Translations under genes and position numbers: made by a program | The notes under the pieces: model-generated | What the model was told of the DNA's origin: nothing | Databases searched by the model: none | What the model saw: only the letters and a program-made list of their open reading frames with translations | Part shown: positions 1 through 61,736 of the stretch, piece after piece | How the letters are laid out: the number at the start of each line of letters is the position of its first letter | Position numbering within the stretch: the stretch's first letter is position 1 | DNA from: Jacunavirus JC01 | Lineage: Duplodnaviria > Heunggongvirae > Uroviricota > Caudoviricetes > Casjensviridae | Reading direction: 5' to 3' (one strand) | DNA length: 61,736 nucleotides | IMG/VR virus record: IMGVR_UViG_2974716774_000001 | Span: 1 to 61,736 of that record

Positions 1-12
1 GGTGCGCAGAGC
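1..12. repeat. Terminal 12-bp direct repeat GGTGCGCAGAGC, left copy (putative cohesive end)
   Basis: Bases 1-12 are identical to bases 61725-61736; a lambda-gpA-like large terminase is encoded at 10651-12723. Confidence 0.6.
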
Positions 13-477
13 CGCGATTCGCGAAAAATTGCCGGTTCCTGTATAGCGCCGCCTTGAAAATCAGCAACTTACGTGGGGCCGCCGGTGGGCTTAGCGTAGC
101 TAACAGGATAATTTTTCAGAAATTCGTCGATAGCCCCGCATTGAAAGTTTTTATTTATCAGCGACTTACAGGCCGCGGTCATCTCGACGGCACAGTGTGT
201 TTCCGGAAACACAGATTTGCCGTATTAAGTGTGTCGGTCAAAAAGCCTTACTGTACAAGGATTTACTATACTCTTAACACACTAACACACAGACACACTT
301 AATGTGTATATAAGGTAAGTAGGTATTGTGTGATGATCGTAATGGCGTTTCACGTTACGTATTATATGTATGTATTAGCGAGTTTTGAGAGTAAGTGTGT
401 CATGGTGAAAGTGCCGAAAAAGTCATGCAGATCATAGGTTTACCCGGCACACCCATTTTTAGCGGAGGGTGTGTCGC

Positions 478-548: not shown

Positions 549-3182
549 TTACGCCCACGTATCGGCGACCTCCTTCGCGGCGCAAGACGCGATTTGTTCT
601 TCCAGGTGGAGTTTCATGGCGTCGTAGTCGATGGTGTCTTTGTCCTTCATCCACTTTTCAGGGTGGCGCATCCATACTGATCCACGAACCCCGTTGACGC
701 GCAGCTGAATACGCTTAACCGGCCCTTTCGAGTACCCCAGCGCTGACAGTCGTGATGCCACTCTGCTGTCACTAGGACGTATGTCACGGGGCACGCTGCG
801 CAGTAACAGTCCTGTGTGTATTAGCTCGTCCGTGACGCCCGCCACATCGTCAGACGCAATGGCGTCTTCCACGAAGTTCGTGAAGTCGTCCTGGGCGTTA
901 TCGATCATGTCGCTGGTGGCTTCAGTGAGCGGAGCAATACCGGAAGAGTGGTCGAAGTCCTCGCTGTATTCCCAGTCACGGAACCACAGCCGCAGCTCGC
1001 CAGCGCACGCCTTGAATGCCTTCTCGAAGTCTTTGAAGAAGCCGGGCTTGTCCTTCAGGAAAGCCATCGCGTCTTCCTTACTGCGAAAGCGAGACCGGAC
1101 TATCAGGAAACGACGGTCGCCATTGCTAATCGGCAGCGCGGCGATGTCGTTGGTGTACATCATCCAGCTGGCCGTGTTCACTTCGTCCTGACCTTCGCGG
1201 TTCTTCCTCTCGATGAAAAGCTGCTCGTTAGTGATAGGCTCCTTCAGGGAGTTAATGACGTCATAGCGGTGGCCCGCAACGCTGATTTCCTCGATGACCT
1301 TCAGCATCGACCCGGCCTGCCATCCCGTGAATGGCCGGTGGATAACCTGGTTGTTGACGGTGCCGACGTTTTCGCGGCCCAGCAGGTACGACATGAATTT
1401 CTTGATAATCGTCTTGCCGGAACCCTGGCCGCCGAGAATGACCAGCGAGTACGTCATGCGTTTGTTCGGGTTATTGATAACCCATGCCAGCCAGTCCATC
1501 GCGTGCCGGTACTCTTCCGGGTCGACGAACTGCGTGCGGAAAAAGTCCTGCACAATCTCAACGGCTTTAAGGCCTTTCTTAGAGATTTTCTCCGGCACTC
1601 CCGGCATCGTTTTCGGGTCAAACGTGTTCAGCCAGAGTTTTCCCTGCCACCGGAAAAAGTCTTCGCTTGGCACGCCGACCTCAGGCTTCCATGACGAACC
1701 TGGCATCCGGCCGTGCATGTCCGGGTAGTACATCATGCCGTGGATAATCGGCACCGGCCGCAAAGCGGTGGCGAATTGCTCAGGACTGCAGCCCATAAAT
1801 GCGGTATGCTGCGCCAGCGAGTTATTGAACGCGTGCGGCACCAGCGCAACTTTCGTCTCGCGGTTGATGAAGAGGTTATCTTTCTCGGCGTACACCCACG
1901 GCTCTATCCAGGCTGGCGCATCAAACTGCTTGTGGTCGACAGACAGTGCGTTGCGTTTGGTGGAAGCAGGGATTTTCTTGCCGGTAATACGTTTGTAGTT
2001 ATCACAGGCCAGCTCTACTGCGTGATCGCGAATGGTTCCCCAGACCGGTGTTTCGCGAAGTCGCTCAGCTGCGCGATCCCATTCGTACAGGTCTTCTGCC
2101 TGTTCGAACATCGGGATAACCCGCAGTAAGATGTCCTTTTCCATACGGGCATCCTCCACTTTCTTCACCAGACTTCTGACGGTGAAGGTGGCACCGCCGG
2201 TGCGGCGGAAATTCCCGTTATCCCATTTGTCGTTAAACGCGGCCTCGTCGTAGTTCGACGCGCGCGCTGACCACTCCTGCGCCAGCTCGCGAAACTCATC
2301 CTGCTCGCGCTCAGCGTCTTTGATGGCTGCGATGACCGGGAACCAGGCAGAATAGTCTTCCGCTGGTGGCAGGTCTTCCAGCAGGGCAGCAAACTCGGCG
2401 TACGTGCCGTCCCATTTATCTTTCGCGTCGTCTGCGTCTACCCAGTCGTCCTCGTCCACTTCGCCCAGGGCATCGGAGCGGTCTTCCGGCGCGCCGCCGA
2501 CGATTTTCCCGCGCTGCGGTGGCTCGTACAGCTTGTCGCCAGGCTGGATTTTTTCCCATCCCTGCTCCATCGCATAGCGGTCAAACTCATCCACGATGCG
2601 GCGCGCGTCGGCAAGGCTCAGCACTTCGAGATCCATGTCAGCGTGCATCGTCAGCGGCGTGTCTTTGCTGACCCACTGATACGGCTTCTGGGTGCCCGGG
2701 TGGATACCGAAGGCGACGAACTGCTGGCCAGCACCGAGGATTTCCACGGCGTTCTTCTCGCCGAAGTCATCGACCCAGCTGTGCGACTTCACTTTCGTGA
2801 ACGGTTCGTCAGCGCAGTAGACGAGCAGCGTTTTTGGCGCCCGGCCCACGCGAGCGGGTGCAAACCCCACGTTGGCTTCGATGAAATCGCGCATATGCTT
2901 CGCCGCGTCGACGTCCATGCAGTCAATATCGACCGCTGGCGTGAACCAGGTGCGGATGCCGATGCCGTAGCGGAAATATTTCTTCTGCCATTCCTCCAGC
3001 GCGTCTTCGTTAACTGCAACCGACTCCCAGTTTTTCATGAGCGGCGCTTTACCGGCCGCCTTGAAAGGCACCAGCTCACCGGTCTTTTTGTCGCGGATCT
3101 TCGCGTCAAGAGGGGAGATTGGAATAAAGGCATAGCCGTTTTCTAGCAACGTCCTGCCGTATTGCTGGAGATATCTTTTCAT
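549..3182 (-). CDS. DNA primase/helicase (P-loop NTPase, D5-like)
   Basis: 877-aa ORF; Walker A-like LVILGGQGSGKT; long N-terminal region preceding the NTPase domain; sits beside the polymerase module. Confidence 0.65.
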   Translation of the reverse strand: MKRYLQQYGRTLLENGYAFIPISPLDAKIRDKKTGELVPFKAAGKAPLMKNWESVAVNEDALEEWQKKYFRYGIGIRTWFTPAVDIDCMDVDAAKHMRDFIEANVGFAPARVGRAPKTLLVYCADEPFTKVKSHSWVDDFGEKNAVEILGAGQQFVAFGIHPGTQKPYQWVSKDTPLTMHADMDLEVLSLADARRIVDEFDRYAMEQGWEKIQPGDKLYEPPQRGKIVGGAPEDRSDALGEVDEDDWVDADDAKDKWDGTYAEFAALLEDLPPAEDYSAWFPVIAAIKDAEREQDEFRELAQEWSARASNYDEAAFNDKWDNGNFRRTGGATFTVRSLVKKVEDARMEKDILLRVIPMFEQAEDLYEWDRAAERLRETPVWGTIRDHAVELACDNYKRITGKKIPASTKRNALSVDHKQFDAPAWIEPWVYAEKDNLFINRETKVALVPHAFNNSLAQHTAFMGCSPEQFATALRPVPIIHGMMYYPDMHGRMPGSSWKPEVGVPSEDFFRWQGKLWLNTFDPKTMPGVPEKISKKGLKAVEIVQDFFRTQFVDPEEYRHAMDWLAWVINNPNKRMTYSLVILGGQGSGKTIIKKFMSYLLGRENVGTVNNQVIHRPFTGWQAGSMLKVIEEISVAGHRYDVINSLKEPITNEQLFIERKNREGQDEVNTASWMMYTNDIAALPISNGDRRFLIVRSRFRSKEDAMAFLKDKPGFFKDFEKAFKACAGELRLWFRDWEYSEDFDHSSGIAPLTEATSDMIDNAQDDFTNFVEDAIASDDVAGVTDELIHTGLLLRSVPRDIRPSDSRVASRLSALGYSKGPVKRIQLRVNGVRGSVWMRHPEKWMKDKDTIDYDAMKLHLEEQIASCAAKEVADTWA

Positions 3183-8556: not shown

Positions 8557-10072
8557 ATACCGACACCGGAAATTTAAGCTGGTCGCCTATAAGCGGATGC
8601 AGCAGCACAAATACCAGCGAGAGGCCTATGACTTCATCATGGCCACGCCTTTCTGCGGGCTCTTCATCGACATGGGTCTCGGCAAAACAATCACCTCCCT
8701 GACCGCCGCGGTTGACCTGCTGATGAATTTCGAGGTCAGCCGCGTCTTGATCATCGCGCCCCGGCGCGTTGCTCGCAAAACATGGCCGGACGAGATTCTG
8801 GCGTGGGAACACACCTGCATGTTTGAGTTTCAGGTTATTGACGGCTCGGTTAAGCAGCGTCTGGAGGCCATCAAAAACCCGTGCAGCATTCACATTGTCA
8901 GCCGTGATAACGTCGAGTGGCTAACCGAGCAGTGGCGCCAGCGATGGCCATACGACATGGTTATCATTGACGAGAGCAGCTCCTTCAAAGACCACACTAC
9001 CAAACGCTTTAAAGCAATGCGCCGCGTTCGTCCGTACATCAAACGCCTCGTTGAACTGACGGCCACACCGGCGGCAGAGACCTACGAGCATCTTTTTGCC
9101 CAGGTCTATCTGCTGGACAGCGGCGCGCGCTTCGGCAAAAGCATCACGGTCTACCGCGAGCAGTATTTCAACTACAACCGCTGGACGTTCAAATACAAAC
9201 TGCGGGAGGGCTCGGAGCAGCAGATACTGGAGAAAATCGCCGACATCTGCCTGGTCATGCGCGCCGAGGACTATCTCGATCTGAAGCAGCCGGTGTACAT
9301 CAACCGCAAGGTGAAACTCGACCGCAAGCAGTCGAAGCTGTACGCCGAGATGGCTGAGAATTTCATCGTTGAGGTTTATGGCGCCGATGAGCAGCCGGTG
9401 ATGGTCGAGGCGGAGACAGCGGCGTCGCTTTCGGCCAAACTCCTGCAGATGTCCTCCGGCGTGCTATACAACACCTATCTGGACGGCATTAACGAGAAGA
9501 CCGGAAAGCCTATCCAGAAGCGCGACATCTACGAGATCCACACGGCAAAACTTGACATGCTGGAGGAAATCATAGAAGAGTGCGCTGGAGAGAACATTCT
9601 CGTGGCGTACCACTTCCAGTCGTCGCTTGACCGCCTGAAGAAGCGCTTTCCTAAAGCGGTTCAGATGGACAAAGAAGGCGAATGTGTCACGAAGTGGAAC
9701 CAGGGCAAGATAAGCCTGCTGCTGGCGCACCCGCAATCAGCCGGGCATGGTCTGAACCTGCAGAAAGGCGGCCACATCATTGTTTACTACGACATCCCGC
9801 ACTCGCTGGAGCTGTACATGCAGTTTAACGGCAGACTGGCGCGGCAGGGTCAGACGCACGTCGTCAAGATTATCCACCTCATCGCTGAAGGCGAGAAGCA
9901 GGATAAGCGCGGCGAGTGGGTGCCCATGCCGACGGTCGACGTCGGTGTCGTCGAATCCCTCCAGGCCAAAAAGGACGGCCAGGAATGGTTACTGGAAGAA
10001 TTGCTGCGGATACGCCGCCGACGCGCCAACGCGCGCAGGAAGGCACTGGCCGCAGCCGTAGAGGACTTCTGA
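8489..10072 (+). CDS. SNF2/DEAD-like helicase
   Basis: ATP-binding GLGKT motif, DESS (DEAH-like) box, C-terminal helicase region; start ambiguous (8489 overlaps the VRR-NUC gene, alternative ATG at 8597). Confidence 0.7.
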   Translation: MGLLSYGSTALKKLKAGLISYAEYRHRKFKLVAYKRMQQHKYQREAYDFIMATPFCGLFIDMGLGKTITSLTAAVDLLMNFEVSRVLIIAPRRVARKTWPDEILAWEHTCMFEFQVIDGSVKQRLEAIKNPCSIHIVSRDNVEWLTEQWRQRWPYDMVIIDESSSFKDHTTKRFKAMRRVRPYIKRLVELTATPAAETYEHLFAQVYLLDSGARFGKSITVYREQYFNYNRWTFKYKLREGSEQQILEKIADICLVMRAEDYLDLKQPVYINRKVKLDRKQSKLYAEMAENFIVEVYGADEQPVMVEAETAASLSAKLLQMSSGVLYNTYLDGINEKTGKPIQKRDIYEIHTAKLDMLEEIIEECAGENILVAYHFQSSLDRLKKRFPKAVQMDKEGECVTKWNQGKISLLLAHPQSAGHGLNLQKGGHIIVYYDIPHSLELYMQFNGRLARQGQTHVVKIIHLIAEGEKQDKRGEWVPMPTVDVGVVESLQAKKDGQEWLLEELLRIRRRRANARRKALAAAVEDF

Positions 10073-25883: not shown

Positions 25884-27583
25884 TGGCACTGACAGGCCTC
25901 CGTCCACTCAAAGAGACCAACACGCTGGGCACCTCCGCTCAGCGCTTTGGACTACTCAATGGGGCGTACGATATTTTCGTGCAGGACACCTACACCGGCG
26001 GCGACGCTGACCAGAACTACTACGCGGCCAAGTGGCTGCGTCTGGCGGCGGGCACCTACCAGCTGCGCTTCATCGGCGATGACTCGGCGACGTTCAGCCT
26101 GAACGGGATGCAGGTGGCGTCCGGCACCTACGACGGCAGCTGGATCACGCCGGTCGTCGAGACGTTCACGGTTGGCGCGGATGACGTATACCGCTGGGAT
26201 ATCGTGAACCACAACGGCCCGGCCAATTCGCCCGCGTTCGTCTCATACGAGCTGAGCAAGGACGGCGTGATTATTGAGGTGTCTCGCGCGCAGGACTTCA
26301 TCGGCGACCTCGTACCGATCCCGGACAAAGCGCTGGGCCCGAAGCCGCCGTACAATAACGATATCCGTCTGAGCTACCCGATCTTCCTGCCGAAGCCAAA
26401 CTGGAAAGACGGCGTTACCGAGCGACTGGAGTGGAAGACCGATGTGCTGGTGTCCGAGACCGGCGCCGAGCAGCGCCGCAAGCTGCGCCAGTACCCCCGC
26501 CGGTCGCTGGAGGCGAGCTTCACCGGGCAGGGCAATTACGCCGCGCTGATCGACAGCTACCTGTCCGGCGTCGGCTACTCCAACGGCCTGGTGCCGCTGT
26601 GGTGGGATGAGACGCCGATTAGTGGCGACGTGGTGGCGGGCGCGGTAGACATCTTCGGCGACTTCAAGTGGCGCGAGTTTAACGCGAACGACGTCGTGAT
26701 TATCCGCAGGCCGGGCCGCGTCACCGACTATGAGCTGAACATTGTGGCCGAGCGCAGCGACACCAAACTGGTGCTGCTCTACGGCCTGCAGGAAGACACG
26801 CGTGCTGGCACCATCACGCCGGTGCGGGTGGCACAAATCCGCGAGCAGCTCTCCGGCACGATCCTGACCGACCGCGTTAAGCAGTACCAGCTGCGCTTCT
26901 TCACGGTGGAAGCCGCGGACTACCCGGCAGAGTGGACTTTCCCGATTTACGAGCGCACCAACCTGCCGATCCTGACGTGGGAGCCGAACTACCGCGAGTC
27001 GCTCGACCTCAACTACGACCGGCAGATCTACACCTGGGATAACGAGGTGGGCAACCCTTACACCGTTGACCCGGGCGGCACGCTGCAGCTGGGCGAGAAA
27101 ATGGGCTTCACGGTGTTCGGACGCGCGGAAATGCACGGCCTCAAGCGCACGCTGTATAAACTGTCTGGCCGGTGGCGCGAGATTCATGTGCCGTCCGGCA
27201 GCGACGAGTTTACGCTGGCCCGCGACATCAATGACAGCGCTGGCGCACTCGTGGTCTACCGCAGTGGCTATAACCAGTACCGGCTCAGCCAGCAGGCCAC
27301 CCGGCGCGACATTCTCGTCGAGCTGTATGACGGGCGCGTCCTGCCTAACACCATCATCTCCAGCCGCGTCGTGGGGGATGAAGAGTGGCTATTTCTGCAG
27401 GAGACGCTGCCGCCTGTTCCCAAAGACCAGGTGCGTCGTATAAGCTACATGCCGAGAAGCCGACTCGATATCGACGCCATCGAAATCAGCAGGCTTACCG
27501 ACGCGGACGGCGCGGCCCAGGTGGCACTGACTTTTAAAGCCATCACTGAAAGAAGGAACGCGCCGCCGATAACTTTCCAGTGA
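25883..27583 (+). CDS. Tail tip protein (distal tail / tip assembly, putative)
   Basis: 566-aa ORF immediately after the tape measure gene (TAATG overlap). Confidence 0.5.
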   Translation: MALTGLRPLKETNTLGTSAQRFGLLNGAYDIFVQDTYTGGDADQNYYAAKWLRLAAGTYQLRFIGDDSATFSLNGMQVASGTYDGSWITPVVETFTVGADDVYRWDIVNHNGPANSPAFVSYELSKDGVIIEVSRAQDFIGDLVPIPDKALGPKPPYNNDIRLSYPIFLPKPNWKDGVTERLEWKTDVLVSETGAEQRRKLRQYPRRSLEASFTGQGNYAALIDSYLSGVGYSNGLVPLWWDETPISGDVVAGAVDIFGDFKWREFNANDVVIIRRPGRVTDYELNIVAERSDTKLVLLYGLQEDTRAGTITPVRVAQIREQLSGTILTDRVKQYQLRFFTVEAADYPAEWTFPIYERTNLPILTWEPNYRESLDLNYDRQIYTWDNEVGNPYTVDPGGTLQLGEKMGFTVFGRAEMHGLKRTLYKLSGRWREIHVPSGSDEFTLARDINDSAGALVVYRSGYNQYRLSQQATRRDILVELYDGRVLPNTIISSRVVGDEEWLFLQETLPPVPKDQVRRISYMPRSRLDIDAIEISRLTDADGAAQVALTFKAITERRNAPPITFQ

Positions 27584-44385: not shown

Positions 44386-44414
44386 ATTATGATTATACAC
44401 TTCATGTGTGTCAA
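44386..44414 (-). promoter_or_regulatory. Sigma70-type promoter with embedded dyad (family member)
   Basis: Minus strand TTGACA-CACATGAAGTGTATAAT-CATAAT; 17-nt spacer contains ACAC-N5-GTGT. Confidence 0.45.
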
Positions 44415-44982: not shown

Positions 44983-45011
44983 ATATAGATTACACACTAG
45001 AGGTGTGTCAA
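44983..45011 (-). promoter_or_regulatory. Sigma70-type promoter with embedded dyad (family member)
   Basis: Minus strand TTGACA-CACCTCTAGTGTGTAAT-CTATAT. Confidence 0.45.
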
Positions 45012-45313: not shown

Positions 45314-46021
45314 TTACAGATCCTCCCACCTTCTGAACCACGCTTCCCGATCGAAATGCTTCTTCGCCGCCAGTGGCATCCCGATCTCCATCAGCTCTTC
45401 CCGGCGGACGTACTCTTCTGGCGCGCGGCTGGTGCTGAGGCCATCGAAGATAATCAGCGACGCGCCGAAGCCTGCGGTAGAGGCATCAGAAGACATGGCG
45501 TCTGGTCTGTACCAGCGAGGCAGGTCGAAAGCGATACGCCCTTTGATGTGGATAATCTTCGAGCATTCGCCGTCCGGCCACCAGCTCTCCGACGTCGCCG
45601 ACTTCACCAGCCAGAAAGATGGCGTGCCTTTCCGGTGCTCTTCGTACGCCTTCTTCATGATGTGCTGCATACCGGTGACGTGGGGCGCCCGACGGCCGCG
45701 CCCGGCGCGCTTGATGCTGTAAGGTGGATTGCCGAAGCATTTGACCGGCTCAGCGTCATCCGCACCCGCCAGCTCGGCACCTTTGCGCAGCGCTGCGCTC
45801 CAGTCCTGCGTCAGCGCGTTATCATCTGCCGTGAAGAACACCGGGCACTTCGCATTGGGGCCGTCACTGAACAGGTCGACGACGAACGGGCCATACAGCT
45901 CATCCAGCGCCAGGTAGAGCCAGTCCGGCGTACACCACTGGTCGCCTATCTCGTTCGGCAGGTGGGTCTGCTGGGCCTGCAGTTGCTGCAGAGCACGCAC
46001 GTACTCATTGCTCATCGGCAT
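45314..46021 (-). CDS. DNA N6-adenine methyltransferase (phage Dam-like)
   Basis: 235-aa ORF; NPPY catalytic motif (CFGNPPYS) and W-C-T-P-D-W segment. Confidence 0.65.
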   Translation of the reverse strand: MPMSNEYVRALQQLQAQQTHLPNEIGDQWCTPDWLYLALDELYGPFVVDLFSDGPNAKCPVFFTADDNALTQDWSAALRKGAELAGADDAEPVKCFGNPPYSIKRAGRGRRAPHVTGMQHIMKKAYEEHRKGTPSFWLVKSATSESWWPDGECSKIIHIKGRIAFDLPRWYRPDAMSSDASTAGFGASLIIFDGLSTSRAPEEYVRREELMEIGMPLAAKKHFDREAWFRRWEDL

Positions 46022-49988: not shown

Positions 49989-50017
49989 ATACTAATTACA
50001 CACTCTGCGTGTGTCAA
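49989..50017 (-). promoter_or_regulatory. Sigma70-type promoter with embedded dyad (family member)
   Basis: Minus strand TTGACA-CACGCAGAGTGTGTAAT-TAGTAT. Confidence 0.45.
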
Positions 50018-55450: not shown

Positions 55451-56208
55451 TTTGAACAGACCAGATAATCTTCCTGGTAGATGTCGGGACAGGAATGAGG
55501 AACCCAGTTGTGCTCACAGGGCTTCGTCTTTTCGCGGTCGATCCCGAGCGTCAGCGGGGCGATTTCATTCGGCATTATCTGGAAGTGGTTAGTCAGCGCG
55601 CCTGCGATGGCCATGCCTTCTTCCCGATCGATGCGTGTTTCGATGCGGGTCAGCAAGCCCTGCTGGAAGATGAATGAGGTTTCGCCCTGCACGTCGTCCA
55701 GCTGAATGACGCGAGGCATCTGATTGAGGTCGGGCAGCTTAAAGCTGGTGGTTTTTCCGCTGCCCTGCTGGCCGACACCGATGACGTCAGGACGGGATTT
55801 CCCCTGTTCCGGTGCGGCGGGCTTATATTGTCGATTCTCCATGCCGAGAAGCTTGAGTGCCTCATCGAAGAACATGATTTCCACCGAAAATCCCTCTGAC
55901 TCCAGTTTGTCGCGGGTTTTAGTGAGTTTTTCCTGACGTGCAACGTTCGTCAGAACCAGAAAGCGCCAGCCCAAAAGGGAGGTTTCGACCTGTTTGCCTG
56001 CAGCTCTGCACCGCGCAGCGAAAGAAGTCATGTTAATCAGATCCCGGAAATTTCCATCCCAGCTGTCGAGGACGCTTTTGCATTTAAGCTTCTCCTTAAG
56101 CGCATAGGCGTAGGTGGTTTTTCCGCAGCCCTGCGGGCCGACAACGATGACGAACGTCGGTCGGTCGCTGGTGACGGGAGGGATGGTGCTGCCATTATGT
56201 CGAATCAT
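55432..56208 (-). CDS. P-loop NTPase with two Walker-A motifs and C-terminal Cys/His zinc-ribbon-like tail
   Basis: 258-aa ORF; VGPQGCGKTT and VGQQGSGKTT; VIQLDD Walker-B-like; C-terminal CEHNWVPHSCP...CSKCGHH. Confidence 0.5.
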   Translation of the reverse strand: MIRHNGSTIPPVTSDRPTFVIVVGPQGCGKTTYAYALKEKLKCKSVLDSWDGNFRDLINMTSFAARCRAAGKQVETSLLGWRFLVLTNVARQEKLTKTRDKLESEGFSVEIMFFDEALKLLGMENRQYKPAAPEQGKSRPDVIGVGQQGSGKTTSFKLPDLNQMPRVIQLDDVQGETSFIFQQGLLTRIETRIDREEGMAIAGALTNHFQIMPNEIAPLTLGIDREKTKPCEHNWVPHSCPDIYQEDYLVCSKCGHHK

Positions 56209-56273
56209 TTCTCTGCTCCGGTTGGGGTGGTACGCCCGGCGAAGAGGTGCCGGGCCTATGGGTGCGCTGGCGG

Positions 56274-56684
56274 TCAGGCCGTGCGCGTTACGATGACCTG
56301 CACGTATACCACGCCGCTCGGCGTGATGGTGGCGTTGGTCTCCATTGTGAAGTTACGGTTGTCGACGCTCTTCGCGTGACGGATGGACTGATTCAGCGAC
56401 TGGCGCAGCTGGCGCTTCCATTCGTTCATGTTCTGACGAACCTCGGCCAGCGTCATGTCGTCCGGCATTTTCAGGCTGCGCGAGTAGTTTCCGCCAGGCT
56501 TGAGAGACAGCAGGTTGGAGATGGCGCTGCCCGGGCGGCCGTTGCCCGGCAGGTCTACGTCCGGCTCGGCAGACAGCAGGGCTGCGGTGATAGCCTGCGC
56601 AGTAAGGCTGGTGGCTGTGTTGCCGCCGGTCGGCGCGTCCACATCATCAGGCAGATCCCATACGTCGTCGTGCTCGTTTGACAT
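56274..56684 (-). CDS. Hypothetical protein, first gene of the long leftward accessory operon
   Basis: About 137 aa from the ATG at 56684 preceded by RBS GGAG; the longer upstream ORF extension runs through the direct repeats and is rejected. Confidence 0.5.
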   Translation of the reverse strand: MSNEHDDVWDLPDDVDAPTGGNTATSLTAQAITAALLSAEPDVDLPGNGRPGSAISNLLSLKPGGNYSRSLKMPDDMTLAEVRQNMNEWKRQLRQSLNQSIRHAKSVDNRNFTMETNATITPSGVVYVQVIVTRTA

Positions 56685-56717
56685 TTTATTACTCCGTGTG
56701 TCGTTTGAAGATGTGAG

Positions 56718-56747
56718 AAAGATATAACTACACTTCGGATGTGTCAA
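56718..56747 (-). promoter_or_regulatory. Sigma70-type promoter with embedded dyad (family member) driving the leftward operon
   Basis: Minus strand TTGACA-CATCCGAAGTGTAG...TATATC about 30 nt upstream of the 56684 start. Confidence 0.45.
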
Positions 56748-56771
56748 ACTTTTTCTGGGCGCTCGGGGGCA

Positions 56772-57024
56772 GGCTGACTTTCTGAAGTAAGGCGGCGCGG
56801 CATGGCGTTCGTCACGGAAAACCGACAGCCGGGTAACTTTTTGAAGTAAGGAAACGCCGTGGCGCCGCGCGACAACCGGCTGACTTTTTGAAGTAAGGAA
56901 GTCATTCAAAAATTTTGGAAGCGAGCGACAGCCGGGTAACTTTTTGAAGTAAGCCGGGGATTTTCCTGAACAGCCGCAAAACCTCGTCGGCTCGATCGAC
57001 AGCCGGGTAACTTTTTGAAGTAAG
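56772..57024. repeat. Array of five direct repeats (core CTTTTTGAAGTAAG; long form CGACAGCCGGGTAACTTTTTGAAGTAAG)
   Basis: Copies at about 56772-56792 (degenerate), 56823-56850, 56873-56898 (degenerate), 56926-56953 and 56997-57024. Confidence 0.85.
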
Positions 57025-57293
57025 CCCCGCGGGCGGCGCGCCTCGCGCGTATATAAAGAGGGCCGTGGCGCCGGGCGGCCCAGGGTGGCGCCGAAAACGT
57101 GTGAAAATACGCGATTTTTGCTTTTTCTATGTGAATCAAGCACTTATCGAATTTTCAGCGCCCTGGGCGGCGTGGTTTTCTTGTGAATCAATGGCTTACG
57201 AGGTGGGCGGCGCGCCCTGGTGGGCCGGGCCGTTCTGGATTTCCATATAAACCAGGCATTTAGCGAATCTGTGAAAATTTTTGTAGAAAGTCT

Positions 57294-57322
57294 TTGACAC
57301 ACTCCGGGTGTATCACTACTAT
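57294..57322 (+). promoter_or_regulatory. Sigma70-type promoter with embedded dyad (family member) driving rightward genes
   Basis: TTGACA-CACTCCGGGTGTATCAC-TACTAT. Confidence 0.45.
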
Positions 57323-57372
57323 TCATCTCATCGGGGCAGCGGCCCCCATCTAAAAACTGATGAGGCGAAAAT

Positions 57373-57633
57373 ATGGAAAAGGTCTATCACACGCTCAAAG
57401 GCGAAACCCTTCAACACTGGCTCACCATTGCCATTATCCGCGATGTTTCCGGCGATGCACGTGTTGAAACGCGCAGCACGATCCATGTTAATAAAGTCTC
57501 CCCCGTCTCCTTCACCTGGGGCGCAGATTTTACCGACGCTGACATCCTGAATGATGGCGACCTTCTGCGCGTAGTTTACCAGCGCTACGGTCGTGACATT
57601 TTCACCGGTAAATATACCCGCGATTTTAATTAA
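57373..57633 (+). CDS. Hypothetical protein
   Basis: 86-aa ORF with RBS GAGG upstream. Confidence 0.4.
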   Translation: MEKVYHTLKGETLQHWLTIAIIRDVSGDARVETRSTIHVNKVSPVSFTWGADFTDADILNDGDLLRVVYQRYGRDIFTGKYTRDFN

Positions 57634-58277: not shown

Positions 58278-58901
58278 ATGCGTGCCATTAGTCTGTCTGA
58301 ATCCGCTTCTTACCGTGTCCTGTACACTTCCCTTGCGCATGTGTCGCCTGCGGATCTTGCCAACCTTAAATCTATGTGTGAGGCCGGATATTATTTCGTT
58401 CACAACGTGGAAAATGATTTTTCCGGTATTATTTGCCGCTATGGTGCCGTAACGCCTGAAAGCGATGTCGGGGAAGTGATGATCGGCGATTATGGGTTTT
58501 CTGAATCTTTCGGCGAAATGATCGCGCAGTTCAAAGACGCCGGTTTTGATGCGGTGCATTTTGACGTTGACGGGGATTTAGTGGAGGGCGTCACCTGGTA
58601 CACGGAAAATAATACTCGTGTACAGCCCATTGCTTACGGCTGTGAAATATTAACATGGTGGGATCTGGCCGTTGAGCATCAGCTCACCGCAACGGATGAA
58701 TACGGGGATGACGGCGACGCGGATTTAAAATATTTTTTGGCGGATGGCGTGCTGTACTGCCTCGATAATTTCATGCGAGTAACTGATGGCGAAATGCAGG
58801 AGATGGGCTTTCACGCGAGCGCCGGTGAATCAAACGGCAGCGCCATCTGCATTACGCTCTCGGATAATAGTGATTTTGTCGACGTGGCGCGCGTATCATG
58901 A
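58278..58901 (+). CDS. Hypothetical strongly acidic protein
   Basis: About 207 aa from the ATG at 58278 with RBS AAGGGG; very high Asp/Glu content. Confidence 0.45.
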   Translation: MRAISLSESASYRVLYTSLAHVSPADLANLKSMCEAGYYFVHNVENDFSGIICRYGAVTPESDVGEVMIGDYGFSESFGEMIAQFKDAGFDAVHFDVDGDLVEGVTWYTENNTRVQPIAYGCEILTWWDLAVEHQLTATDEYGDDGDADLKYFLADGVLYCLDNFMRVTDGEMQEMGFHASAGESNGSAICITLSDNSDFVDVARVS

Positions 58902-59104
58902 CCGGCCCGGCAAAACGTGCGGCGGTTAAATTTACCGTATGCGCCGCGCTTGCTGTATTCGGTGGAGTGGCGATCCCGTTTGCCGGGTCGCCGTATAAGG
59001 TTTTTCTTTATGTCCTGGCTATCGGCGTATGCGTTAAACTCGCATGGCCCAGCCAGGAGGAGGGCGAGGCGCTGATTAAGGCGGTAGACGATGAGAAGCG
59101 TTAA
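58898..59104 (+). CDS. Small membrane protein
   Basis: 68-aa ORF; two hydrophobic segments. Confidence 0.4.
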   Translation: MTGPAKRAAVKFTVCAALAVFGGVAIPFAGSPYKVFLYVLAIGVCVKLAWPSQEEGEALIKAVDDEKR

Positions 59105-61156: not shown

Positions 61157-61183
61157 CGCGGGCTTTTTTATTTCCGCTATTCC
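61157..61183 (+). terminator. Rho-independent terminator
   Basis: Stem GCCCGC / GCGGGC, loop CCTGC, followed by TTTTTTATTT; near-copy of the 59278-59303 terminator. Confidence 0.65.
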
Positions 61184-61343
61184 GCCACGCTTTGACCTTT
61201 ATCCGACTTGTGCGACGAACGCCCTGGTTTTGGATTCAATTCTAATTATCACGCATGTTATTAGTTAGCCGTGCCCGTTGCCACGTTGCAGCGTGCGCCC
61301 TGCGATGCGCCCTGTAAGCGGGCCTGTGATACGGGCCAGTGCT

Positions 61344-61445
61344 CACACACTTCGGATGTGTCATGGGTGGCTGTGGTGCTGACACTTCGGATGTATCAAA
61401 GGCGCGGTGTGATTGTGACACGTTGATACACATGGAATGTGTCAT
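61344..61445. promoter_or_regulatory. Cluster of TGACAC/GTGTCA dyad elements (operator-like or packaging-recognition sites)
   Basis: CACACACTTCGGATGTGTCA (61344-61363), TGACACTTCGGATGTATCA (about 61380-61398), GTGACACGTTGATACACA and AATGTGTCATG (about 61412-61445). Confidence 0.4.
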
Positions 61446-61724
61446 GCCTGCGGCTGTGCTGTGGTACGGATGATGCCGCGTGCCCTGGTGTGGTGGGCTG
61501 GTGGATAGCCCTGATAATACCCTTTCTCCTGATGTTCTGTGATGCGGTGTGACAACCGCACTATCTGATGCCCATAGAAGGCCGATAAACGAGGCTGTGC
61601 GGGCCGATCTATGCTGTGCCTATGATACCCTATTGCTTCTGTGCTTGCGTGGCGTGTGGTGCGCGCTGTGCGTTATTCCGCGAAAGCCGAAAAGGTACTT
61701 CCCCGGCCAGGCCGGAAAGCCGGG

Positions 61725-61736
61725 GGTGCGCAGAGC
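61725..61736. repeat. Terminal 12-bp direct repeat GGTGCGCAGAGC, right copy (putative cohesive end)
   Basis: Exact copy of bases 1-12 at the last 12 positions of the window. Confidence 0.6.

Follow-up and report, generated by a model that had tools for sequence, protein, structure and literature searches.

Predicted IHF-type bend sites and a putative UP element beside the iterons in the early control region of a Chi-like phage

Genome context and layout of the early control region

The DNA analysed here was a stretch of 61,736 nucleotides from Jacunavirus JC01 (IMG/VR record IMGVR_UViG_2974716774_000001), hereafter called the window, which both starts and finishes with GGTGCGCAGAGC. The same 12 nt have been published as the cohesive end of Salmonella phage Chi (PMC4342425), so the window is the complete cos genome of a Chi-like phage (Casjensviridae), a group whose members are used as flagellum-targeting models and for biocontrol. 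Within the phage collection, its nearest relative is Salmonella phage BAU.Micro_SLP-22 (Casjensviridae, Jacunavirus), to which part of the genome is about 75% identical.

The locus of interest is a non-coding spacer of 690 bp (56685-57372), which is flanked by divergent sigma-70 early promoters and contains five iterons in its left half and a second set of repeats (57025-57290) in its right half. The leftward early promoter P_L (56719..56747, minus strand; TTGACA-17 nt-TATCTT) was obtained in a promoter scan with 10/12 matches, has equivalents in the relatives and drives the DUF7609 gene (56274-56684; Pfam assignment). The protein encoded by this gene has no informative relative with a solved structure, and the gene is not iteron-specific, since it also occurs in Proteus phage Saba (Cenphatecvirus). 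The same scan yielded the rightward early promoter P_R (57294..57322, plus strand; TTGACA-17 nt-TACTAT), which has an operator-like inverted repeat ACAC...GTGT and whose first gene is a DUF7300 gene starting at 57373 (Pfam). No promoter was detected by the scan inside 57025-57290 or pointing into it. The literature searched contained no description of the early control region of Chi-like phages or of the iteron sequence, and the database records of the relatives annotate hypothetical, apparently spurious genes across the control region.

The iteron array (56764..57024, plus strand) was identified by repeat search and consists of five co-oriented copies of CGACAGCCGGGTAACTTTTTGAAGTAAG, the first of which is degenerate; the copies are spaced at 47-71 bp and are not contiguous. 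Within the window, the iteron core TTTTTSAAGTAAG is confined to this array. This core is kept in Chivirus, Jacunavirus, Enchivirus, Redjacvirus, Lavrentievavirus, Yonseivirus and Kokobelvirus as well as in metagenome contigs, while AAGTAAG iterons are absent throughout the genome of phage Saba. This phage retains the DUF7609 gene, the divergent promoters and an orthologous replication module, its inter-promoter gap measures only about 130 bp, and the whole iteron plus second-repeat module is missing from it. Searches with the iteron pattern recovered distant contigs only (one match, in the giant-virus contig L029, was a chance hit), and an exact-pattern scan with the IHF-type unit described below found no closer relatives for footprinting. 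Comparison of the spacer with plasmids and E. coli genomes revealed no similarity.

Composition of the second repeat set

The initial annotation had described, right of the iterons, a second set of repeats in which AT-rich segments with four TGTGAA(T/A) motifs alternate with GC-rich blocks. All of this was borne out, and the set proved to be distinct from the iterons and conserved among relatives. The TGTGAAW copies are located at 57100, 57130, 57182 and 57270, every one of them on the plus strand. Over the whole genome, the motif occurs at the frequency expected by chance (12 found vs. 11.7 expected); four copies within 177 bp were reached in 0/5000 dinucleotide-preserving shuffles of 57025-57290, which contained a mean of 0.04. 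The alternation in base composition is pronounced, with 20-base segments of 0.90-0.95 GC (57025, 57065 and 57205) between segments of 0.25-0.35 GC. Short words recur in the GC-rich blocks, namely GGGCGGCG at 57031, 57165 and 57205 (3/12 genome copies) and GTGGCGCCG at 57065 and 57085, with another copy at 56859 between the iterons (together three of the eight genome copies); CCWGG occurs at 57080, 57162, 57216 and 57252.

Reading from the iterons towards P_R along the plus strand, the set opens with GC box 1, CCCCGCGGGCGGCGCGCCTCGCGCG (57025..57049), which includes the GGGCGGCG copy at 57031 and is followed by a degenerate T-box-like element, TATATAAAGAGGG (57050..57062). The latter was recognised by sequence comparison and has counterparts in GTATAAAGAGGG of contig L028 and in TTTTTATAGAGAA after the last iteron of phage Chi. 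GC box 2 (57060..57093) contains two GTGGCGCCG copies (57065 and 57085) and CCAGG at 57080 and forms inverted repeats with GC boxes 3 and 4, of which it is the inverted partner. GC box 3, GCGCCCTGGGCGGCGTG (57158..57174), carries CCTGG at 57162 and GGGCGGCG at 57165, and GC box 4 (57199..57232) carries GGGCGGCG at 57205 and CCTGGTGG at 57216, which differs by one mismatch from the host Chi site. GC box 2 adjoins unit A (57093..57113), an A-tract followed by CGTGTGAAAATACGCG that includes the first TGTGAA, but has no IHF core. This TGTGAA (57100) lies within GAAAACGTGTGAAAATACGCG, an A-tract unit, and unit A is of the same kind as the units GAAAAACGTATGAAATC and the repeated GAAAAAACGTATGAAATCA of contig L018. 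Tandem-repeat detection (TRF) returned nothing in the repeat set because its units are conserved as motifs only; the set is real and family-wide.

We also considered a small structured RNA, terminators or a small protein as the content of the region. The scan reported two terminator-like hairpins (57098 and 57158), and ORFs of 60-61 aa overlap the region, at which the records of relatives also annotate hypothetical genes. However, the DNA folds no better than its shuffles on either strand (z -0.53 and -0.96), the count of terminator-like hairpins equals the shuffle expectation, and Rfam was blank within the interval. The small ORFs are not conserved, with no similarity between the window ORF and gp63 of phage Chi; the region of the relatives is not colinear and keeps motifs only, and no promoter is directed into it. 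An RNA or protein product is therefore scarcely credible, and the region is putative protein-binding DNA, neither RNA nor coding sequence.

IHF-type sites in the spacer and at the left cohesive end

The two central TGTGAAT motifs run straight into AATCAAGCACTTA and AATCAATGGCTTA, which match the core of the binding consensus of the integration host factor, IHF. This consensus reads WATCARnnnnTTR, and an A-tract of 4-6 nt is present in the other half of some sites, e.g., lambda H' (bioRxiv 10.1101/382655). Predicted IHF-type site 1 (57114..57146, plus strand) comprises T-tracts at 57114-57127, TATGTG with the second TGTGAA and the core AATCAAGCACTTA at 57134-57146, and site 2 (57175..57198, plus strand) comprises GTTTTC, TTGTG with the third TGTGAA and the core AATCAATGGCTTA at 57186-57198, which begins 52 bp past the first core. 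A degenerate third unit, GATTTCCATATAAACCAGGCATTTA (57238..57262, plus strand), emerged from the repeat search and the element map; its core AACCAGGCATTTA at 57250 has one mismatch vs. WATCARNNNNTTR and begins 64 bp after site 2. TTTTT precedes core 1 by 7 nt and TTTT precedes core 2 by 6 nt, and in contig L018, A5-6 tracts are located 7 nt ahead of the cores; a tract placed in this way before the core has been described for lambda H'. A repeated unit of about 30 bp can be described, in which an A/T tract is followed by C-(G/T)T(A/G)T(G/A)-(A/T)GAA and this by TCAAnnnnTTA. Read in this way, TGTGAA(T/A) would be the flexible pyrimidine-purine part of the repeated unit, two copies of which are predicted full IHF consensus sites.

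The scoring of IHF sites was positive for the region, as the only two perfect WATCAANNNNTTR matches of the 61.7-kb window lie at 57134 and 57186 (0.58 expected in the window), and none occurred in 5000 local shuffles. Perfect matches to WATCARnnnnTTR / WATCARNNNNTTR number four in the window, all on the plus strand and all in non-coding control DNA: two belong to the second repeat set, and two are located close to the left cos end, at distances of 59 and 156 nt. The latter pair consists of AATCAGCAACTTA at 59 and TATCAGCGACTTA at 156 (59..168, plus strand). Perfect IHF-type sites were also located at nt 60 in phage Chi and at nt 59 in phage Enc34, counted from the left ends, so that three genera share a cos-proximal site 59-60 nt away from the left cohesive end. 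The cosB region of phage lambda carries an IHF site, I1, which the cos-adjoining pair of the phage studied here resembles in its location. The conserved position of these sites provides independent support for the use of IHF by this phage group and suggests that the group exploits the host protein.

Conservation of the motifs among relatives

To follow the elements through the family, we collected the orthologous spacers of the named phages Chi, FSL SP-030, SLP-22, Redjac, PatoteraRojo, Enc34, pPM_01, Seifer and Kokobel1 together with those of five metagenome contigs. These spacers could not be aligned colinearly, and motifs alone are conserved. An unbiased strand-specific search for 11-mers with up to two mismatches, covering the DNA from the last iteron to the -35 hexamer in 11 non-redundant genomes, recovered TTTTGTAGAAA in 10/11 genomes, AATCAATGGTT in eight of the 11 and GC-box words likewise in 8/11, compared with a maximum of 5-8 genomes for any word in 30 shuffles. 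In ten orthologous spacers, perfect IHF cores have a density of 1.0 per kb; the remaining 61 kb of the window contain none, and the flanks and phage Saba contain 0.03-0.05 per kb, so that the cores are about 20-fold enriched in the spacers. Site 1 has orthologous sites in relatives, and near-identical site 2 cores are present in SLP-22, SP-030 and the contigs L019, L018 and L028. Contig L018 contains four co-oriented units such as GAAAAAACGTATGAAATCAGGGGTTTAC, whose cores are exactly 64 bp apart.

The position of the cores is linked to the iterons. In seven lineages, the distance from the last iteron to the first core is 95-131 nt (mean 112, sd 11) although the intervening sequence does not align, whereas the distance from the first core to the -35 hexamer varies from 55 to 288 nt among them. 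The TGTG of the window is replaced by TATA or TATG in the relatives, which have TATAGA, TATAAA or TATGAA at equivalent positions. Such alternating pyrimidine-purine steps would suit a kinked, protein-bent site.

Several observations count against the IHF reading. On the consensus strand, the cores are preceded by a T-run vs. an A-run in lambda H', the copies in the control region of phage Chi each carry one mismatch, and the spacer of Lavrentievavirus (pPM01) contains no IHF-like core. Furthermore, distances of 108 and 160 nt between the cores and the downstream -35 hexamer are large for direct activation, and in relatives, NGGY often occupies the four "free" spacer positions of the core, suggesting a constraint beyond IHF or a different reader. 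The assignment of the cores is a match to a consensus, which predicts occupancy rather than proving it.

The units could accordingly be read by a phage-encoded DNA-binding protein or a host factor other than IHF, the match to the IHF consensus being incidental. Apart from the semi-conserved NGGY inside the core, this is favoured by semi-conserved bases outside the IHF positions (CGTATGA, CTATGTG or CGTATAGA before the core) and by the T-box TTTTTRTAGARA, which the repeat search showed to be similar to the conserved iteron half TTTTTSAAGTAAG, so that one protein could read both. Neither the phyletic comparison nor domain searches supplied a candidate protein, however, the same consensus is found at the fixed cos-adjacent position in three genera, and a kinked IHF site would be expected to favour the alternating pyrimidine-purine steps. 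We regard another reader as improbable. Two further candidates were discarded. For CRP sites (TGTGA-N6-TCACA), the second half-sites were absent by inspection and the relatives do not contain TGTGA, and inspection revealed no GG-N10-GC element that would indicate a sigma-54 promoter downstream of an IHF site.

A putative UP element at P_R

The fourth TGTGAA and a T-box together form TGTGAAAATTTTTGTAGAAAGTC (57270..57292, plus strand), which opens with TGTGAA at 57270, stops 1 nt short of the -35 hexamer of P_R and is read as an UP element abutting it. We compared it with the 17-bp UP-element consensus AAAWWTWTTTTNNNAAA (PMC2412878). The segment 57273-57290 matches this consensus with two mismatches (starts 57273/57274) and ends 3-4 nt before the TTGACA at 57294, directly upstream of the -35 hexamer, where UP elements are usually located (about -57 to -41). 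Three UP matches were detected in the window vs. 0.57 expected, and two of the three are the P_R site; 57273/57274 is tied with 58728, at two mismatches each, as the closest match to AAAWWTWTTTTNNNAAA in the window. The stretch 57270-57292 is also the sole strong match to the family-wide T-box matrix (PWM) in the 61.7 kb, and in seven relatives, the same A/T-rich element keeps this offset, beginning 15-16 nt upstream of the -35 hexamer. The last TGTGAA copy is therefore read as part of a near-consensus putative UP element for P_R. In relatives, the T-box TTTTTRTAGARA also occurs away from promoters, typically 8-12 nt after an iteron.

Evaluation of a DnaA-dependent or iteron-type replication origin

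According to the initial annotation, TGTGAATCA differs from the reversed DnaA box at a single position, which is arithmetically correct. Four 8/9 matches to TTWTNCACA within 177 bp might represent a cluster of weak DnaA boxes that recruits host DnaA. These are near-matches only, however: a perfect DnaA box (TTATCCACA / TTWTNCACA) occurs neither in 57025-57290 nor in any of the ten orthologous spacers (0/10), and the sole perfect one in the window is located at 45547. The TATA or TATG of the relatives (TATAGA, TATAAA, TATGAA) in place of TGTG destroys the CACA core, and the density of one-mismatch boxes in their spacers, 2.25 per kb, is near the background of 1.0-1.4 per kb. Moreover, the phage has its own primase-helicase, polymerase and SSB. 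The DnaA-box reading is thus largely refuted, and we consider recruitment of DnaA by these motifs very improbable.

A broader proposal had been that the region is an origin or a complex regulatory region. The complex regulatory part stands, whereas the likeness to an origin is one of architecture. As an iteron-type origin, the second repeat set would be its AT-rich/GC-rich half: an initiator would bind to the iterons, IHF would bend the DNA, AT-rich DNA would melt, and the Prim-Pol/SF3 helicase would be loaded. The co-oriented iterons recall pSC101, R6K gamma and RK2 oriV, the IHF-type sites lie at a conserved distance from the iteron array, the AT-rich segments are flanked by GC-rich blocks, and the region is seemingly untranscribed and located at a strand-switch point. 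A GC-skew model, in which skew was regressed on gene orientation plus replication side, also placed the best origin of the window at 56250 (t 3.8), and the detrended cumulative skew had its minimum at 55475 and its maximum roughly opposite at 26831. This coincidence is not reproducible, because the best positions in the other phages disagree with it (44250 in Chi, 49000 in Enc34, 20500 in pPM01 and 20750 in Saba, each at the late/early gene junction) and their control regions reached t values of only 2.0, 1.1, -0.3 and 0.1, respectively.

Other observations also weigh against an origin. The flanking genes do not code for a Rep-like initiator domain, DnaA boxes are absent, and phage Saba has orthologous replication genes yet iterons nowhere. 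A phyletic screen for window proteins that are found in Chi, Enc34 and pPM01, but not in Saba, yielded a single 68-aa protein with two transmembrane segments, so the sole protein in iteron-bearing genomes that is missing from Saba is a membrane protein. The replication module includes an 877-aa protein combining Prim-Pol, PriCT_2 and SF3-helicase parts, whose C-terminal domain was evaluated as an iteron reader and rejected. The last 138 aa share 31% identity with iteron-less Saba, are equally similar to Saba and pPM01, and could not be detected in Chivirus, Enc34, Redjac and Seifer, which have the iterons. No co-variation between this domain and the iterons was observed, and none of the primase segments showed divergence specific to Saba. 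In a duplex-stability scan, the AT segments of the region were among the weaker ones, and rank 4 at 100 bp was its promoter part; the least stable duplex of the genome lies at 238-337 beside the primase gene and cos. The module of iterons and second repeats resembles an origin in its architecture, but an origin role is not supported by our analysis; the iteron-type origin appears doubtful, though it deserves consideration.

It is also conceivable, although rather unlikely, that the iterons and the GC-box/IHF-type units with 52-64 bp between cores constitute one family-specific nucleoprotein machine. Such a machine might be a new class of phage origin serving the Prim-Pol/SF3-helicase replisome, or it might titrate a host factor in the manner of an enhancer or decoy. 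Either way, the machine would be a cassette that was gained and lost, being present in at least seven genera and missing in Cenphatecvirus Saba.

Proposed function in the early control region

The region is best explained as a group of IHF-type bend sites plus an UP element of P_R in the promoter-proximal half of the spacer, a reading to which we give an even chance. In its best-supported form, it would comprise two to three co-oriented IHF-type bend sites, the UP element and G-rich GC boxes. The occurrence, statistics, conservation and location of the motifs lead us to infer IHF binding, a bending geometry and an effect on transcription. After injection, IHF, which bends its specific sites by about 160 degrees, would sharply bend the spacer at two or three sites, which are 52 and 64 bp apart and would be roughly in helical phase, and thereby fold the upstream iteron array with whatever binds to it towards P_R. 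The UP element, if contacted by the alpha subunits of RNA polymerase, would raise transcription from P_R, and the GC boxes (GGGCGGCG, GTGGCGCCG and CCWGG), which separate the AT-rich units, may bind a factor. The likely role of the region is architectural, in that folding by IHF would couple the iteron array to the early promoter region.

Elements of these kinds are already known, and their description in this phage family is what is new. As in lambda attP H' and cosB I1, the IHF-type sites are located in non-coding control DNA of a phage, and the second pair adjoins the cohesive end like I1. In contrast to the lambda sites, those of the repeat set are two to three co-oriented predicted sites, 52/64 bp apart, which are interleaved with GC boxes and lie beside iterons, and unlike at H', a T-run is found upstream on the consensus strand. 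The IHF-stimulated early promoters of phages, lambda pL and Mu Pe/Pc, likewise have IHF-type sites upstream of a strong sigma-70 early promoter with A/T-rich upstream DNA, and in Mu, the sites are positioned between divergent promoters, as in the spacer studied here. The cores described here are located further upstream than in these systems, at 108 and 160 nt from the -35 hexamer, and it is their spacing to the iteron array, not to the promoter, that is conserved. The putative UP element resembles that of rrnB P1 in being a 17-bp A/T-rich match, with two mismatches, at 3-4 nt before the -35 hexamer. It differs in that its T-box TTTTTRTAGARA is also found at promoter-distant positions in relatives and may have a second reader. 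With the pSC101 ori, R6K gamma ori and RK2 oriV, the region shares a direct-repeat array, an adjacent IHF-type site and AT-rich plus GC-rich neighbours, the order in RK2 oriV being iterons, then AT-rich, then GC-rich DNA. This likeness is one of architecture, since the phage region has no adjacent rep gene and no DnaA box and its iterons are 47-71 bp apart.

Coordinates are now available for two divergent early promoters, the iteron array, the IHF-type sites and the UP element of a Chi-like phage, and the chain of misannotation leading from TGTGAA motifs via DnaA boxes to an origin is corrected. The predicted sites would imply a dependence on host IHF at both cos and the early promoters. For phage engineering, the region is a candidate strong-promoter cassette, and insertions into it would probably be harmful.

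Absence of the iterons in Saba and surroundings of the array in relatives

At 9803-10048, Proteus phage Saba (MN062188; sequences L014/L015) still has a DUF7609 gene beside two divergent promoters, but only ~130 bp separate the two promoters, and no iterons were found anywhere when we searched across its genome. Because the promoters and the DUF7609 gene are thus present without the repeats, the iteron module behaves as a gain/loss cassette. Around its cos site and primase gene, Saba has 1.6 kb of non-coding DNA with repeats unlike the iterons, namely three copies of TCATTTTTTAACCG as well as GTAGG-type repeats. The sole window protein common to Chi, Enc34 and pPM_01 but undetected in Saba is a 68-aa two-transmembrane protein encoded in the P_R operon (58898-59104, plus strand).

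An inverted A/T element, GTTCAAAAATTTTC, lies directly 5' of one particular iteron of the window (56905-56916) and precedes one particular iteron in nearly all relatives, namely Chi, SP-030, Redjac, Enc34, Seifer and the relative represented by sequence L023. It is the reverse of the A/T core common to the iteron and the T-box, the A/T-rich element 5' of the P_R -35 region. In FSL SP-030 (L001, 1864-2388), the gene for an HNH endonuclease, gp63, abuts the iteron array and occupies the place taken in other phages by P_L and the start of the DUF7609 gene; a leftward promoter was looked for in this control spacer and none was detected.

Public records place genes for hypothetical proteins over the non-coding repeat region in SLP-22 (XCX10872-XCX10874; L002, 4497-5594), Chi (gp63; L031, 3977-4150) and pPM_01 (gp15; L006, 2596-2724). 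These are probably spurious; in the one pair compared, the window ORF at 57065-57250 showed no similarity to Chi gp63.

Early promoter family and the P_R leader

A family of early promoters in the window follows the pattern TTGACACAC-N5-GTGT(A/G)T..TAnnAT, with 8 matches against 0.83 expected. Family members are located on the minus strand at 44395-44414, 44992-45011, 49998-50017, 56719-56747 and 61345, and on the plus strand at 57294-57322, 59373, 59847 and 61423. An operator-like inverted repeat spans the -35 region and spacer in this family, and a shut-off repressor may act here. Near the right end of the window, two weaker copies stand face to face.

Ahead of the first rightward gene, the 5' leader (57324-57365) contains a GC hairpin (GGGGCAGCGGCCCC) nested in the longer inverted repeat CATCTCATC...GATGAGG. 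Relatives also have GC-rich leader hairpins; folding of the window leader against shuffled sequences gave no significant gain in stability (z -1.2).

Genome ends, primase and alternative origin candidate

Both termini of the window (1-12 and 61725-61736) read GGTGCGCAGAGC, exactly the 12 nt that have been published as the cohesive end of phage Chi, so the window represents a complete cos genome. Each end is flanked by ~550 nt of non-coding DNA (1-548; 61160-61736) containing GTGTGTC/GACACAC-type repeats. IHF-consensus sites lie by the left cohesive end at 59-71 and 156-168 (plus strand). Counted from the left cohesive end, a perfect match to this consensus keeps its place at 59-60 nt in three genera (nt 60 in Chi, KM458633; nt 59 in Enc34), which suggests that IHF assists cos recognition, as it does through I1, the IHF site in cosB of phage lambda, which the cos-proximal sites of the window, Chi and Enc34 resemble.

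The left-end non-coding DNA adjoins the primase gene and is a candidate for an alternative origin, since duplex stability across the genome reaches its minimum there (238-337). The "primase" (549-3182, minus strand; 877 aa) is a fusion of Prim-Pol, PriCT_2 and SF3 (DUF5906) helicase, the helicase part resembling the NrS-1 phage primase-helicase (PDB 6k9c). Its C-terminal ~130 aa are the fastest-evolving part and, judged by eye, resemble a winged-helix domain.

After detrending, the cumulative GC skew of the whole window traces a V: it is lowest at 55475 and peaks at 26831, within the co-oriented tail genes. Chi, Enc34, pPM_01 and Saba do not show this pattern.

Recombination hotspots

The host recombination hotspot Chi (GCTGGTGG) occurs 32 times in the whole window (e.g., at 912, 2362, 56607 and 61497) against 2.98 expected, a roughly ten-fold excess, with 21 of the copies on the plus strand. 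Among the control spacers of relatives, perfect copies are found in phage Chi (three) and Kokobel1 (one), and GC box 4 of the window (57199-57232) carries CCTGGTGG, one mismatch from the hotspot.
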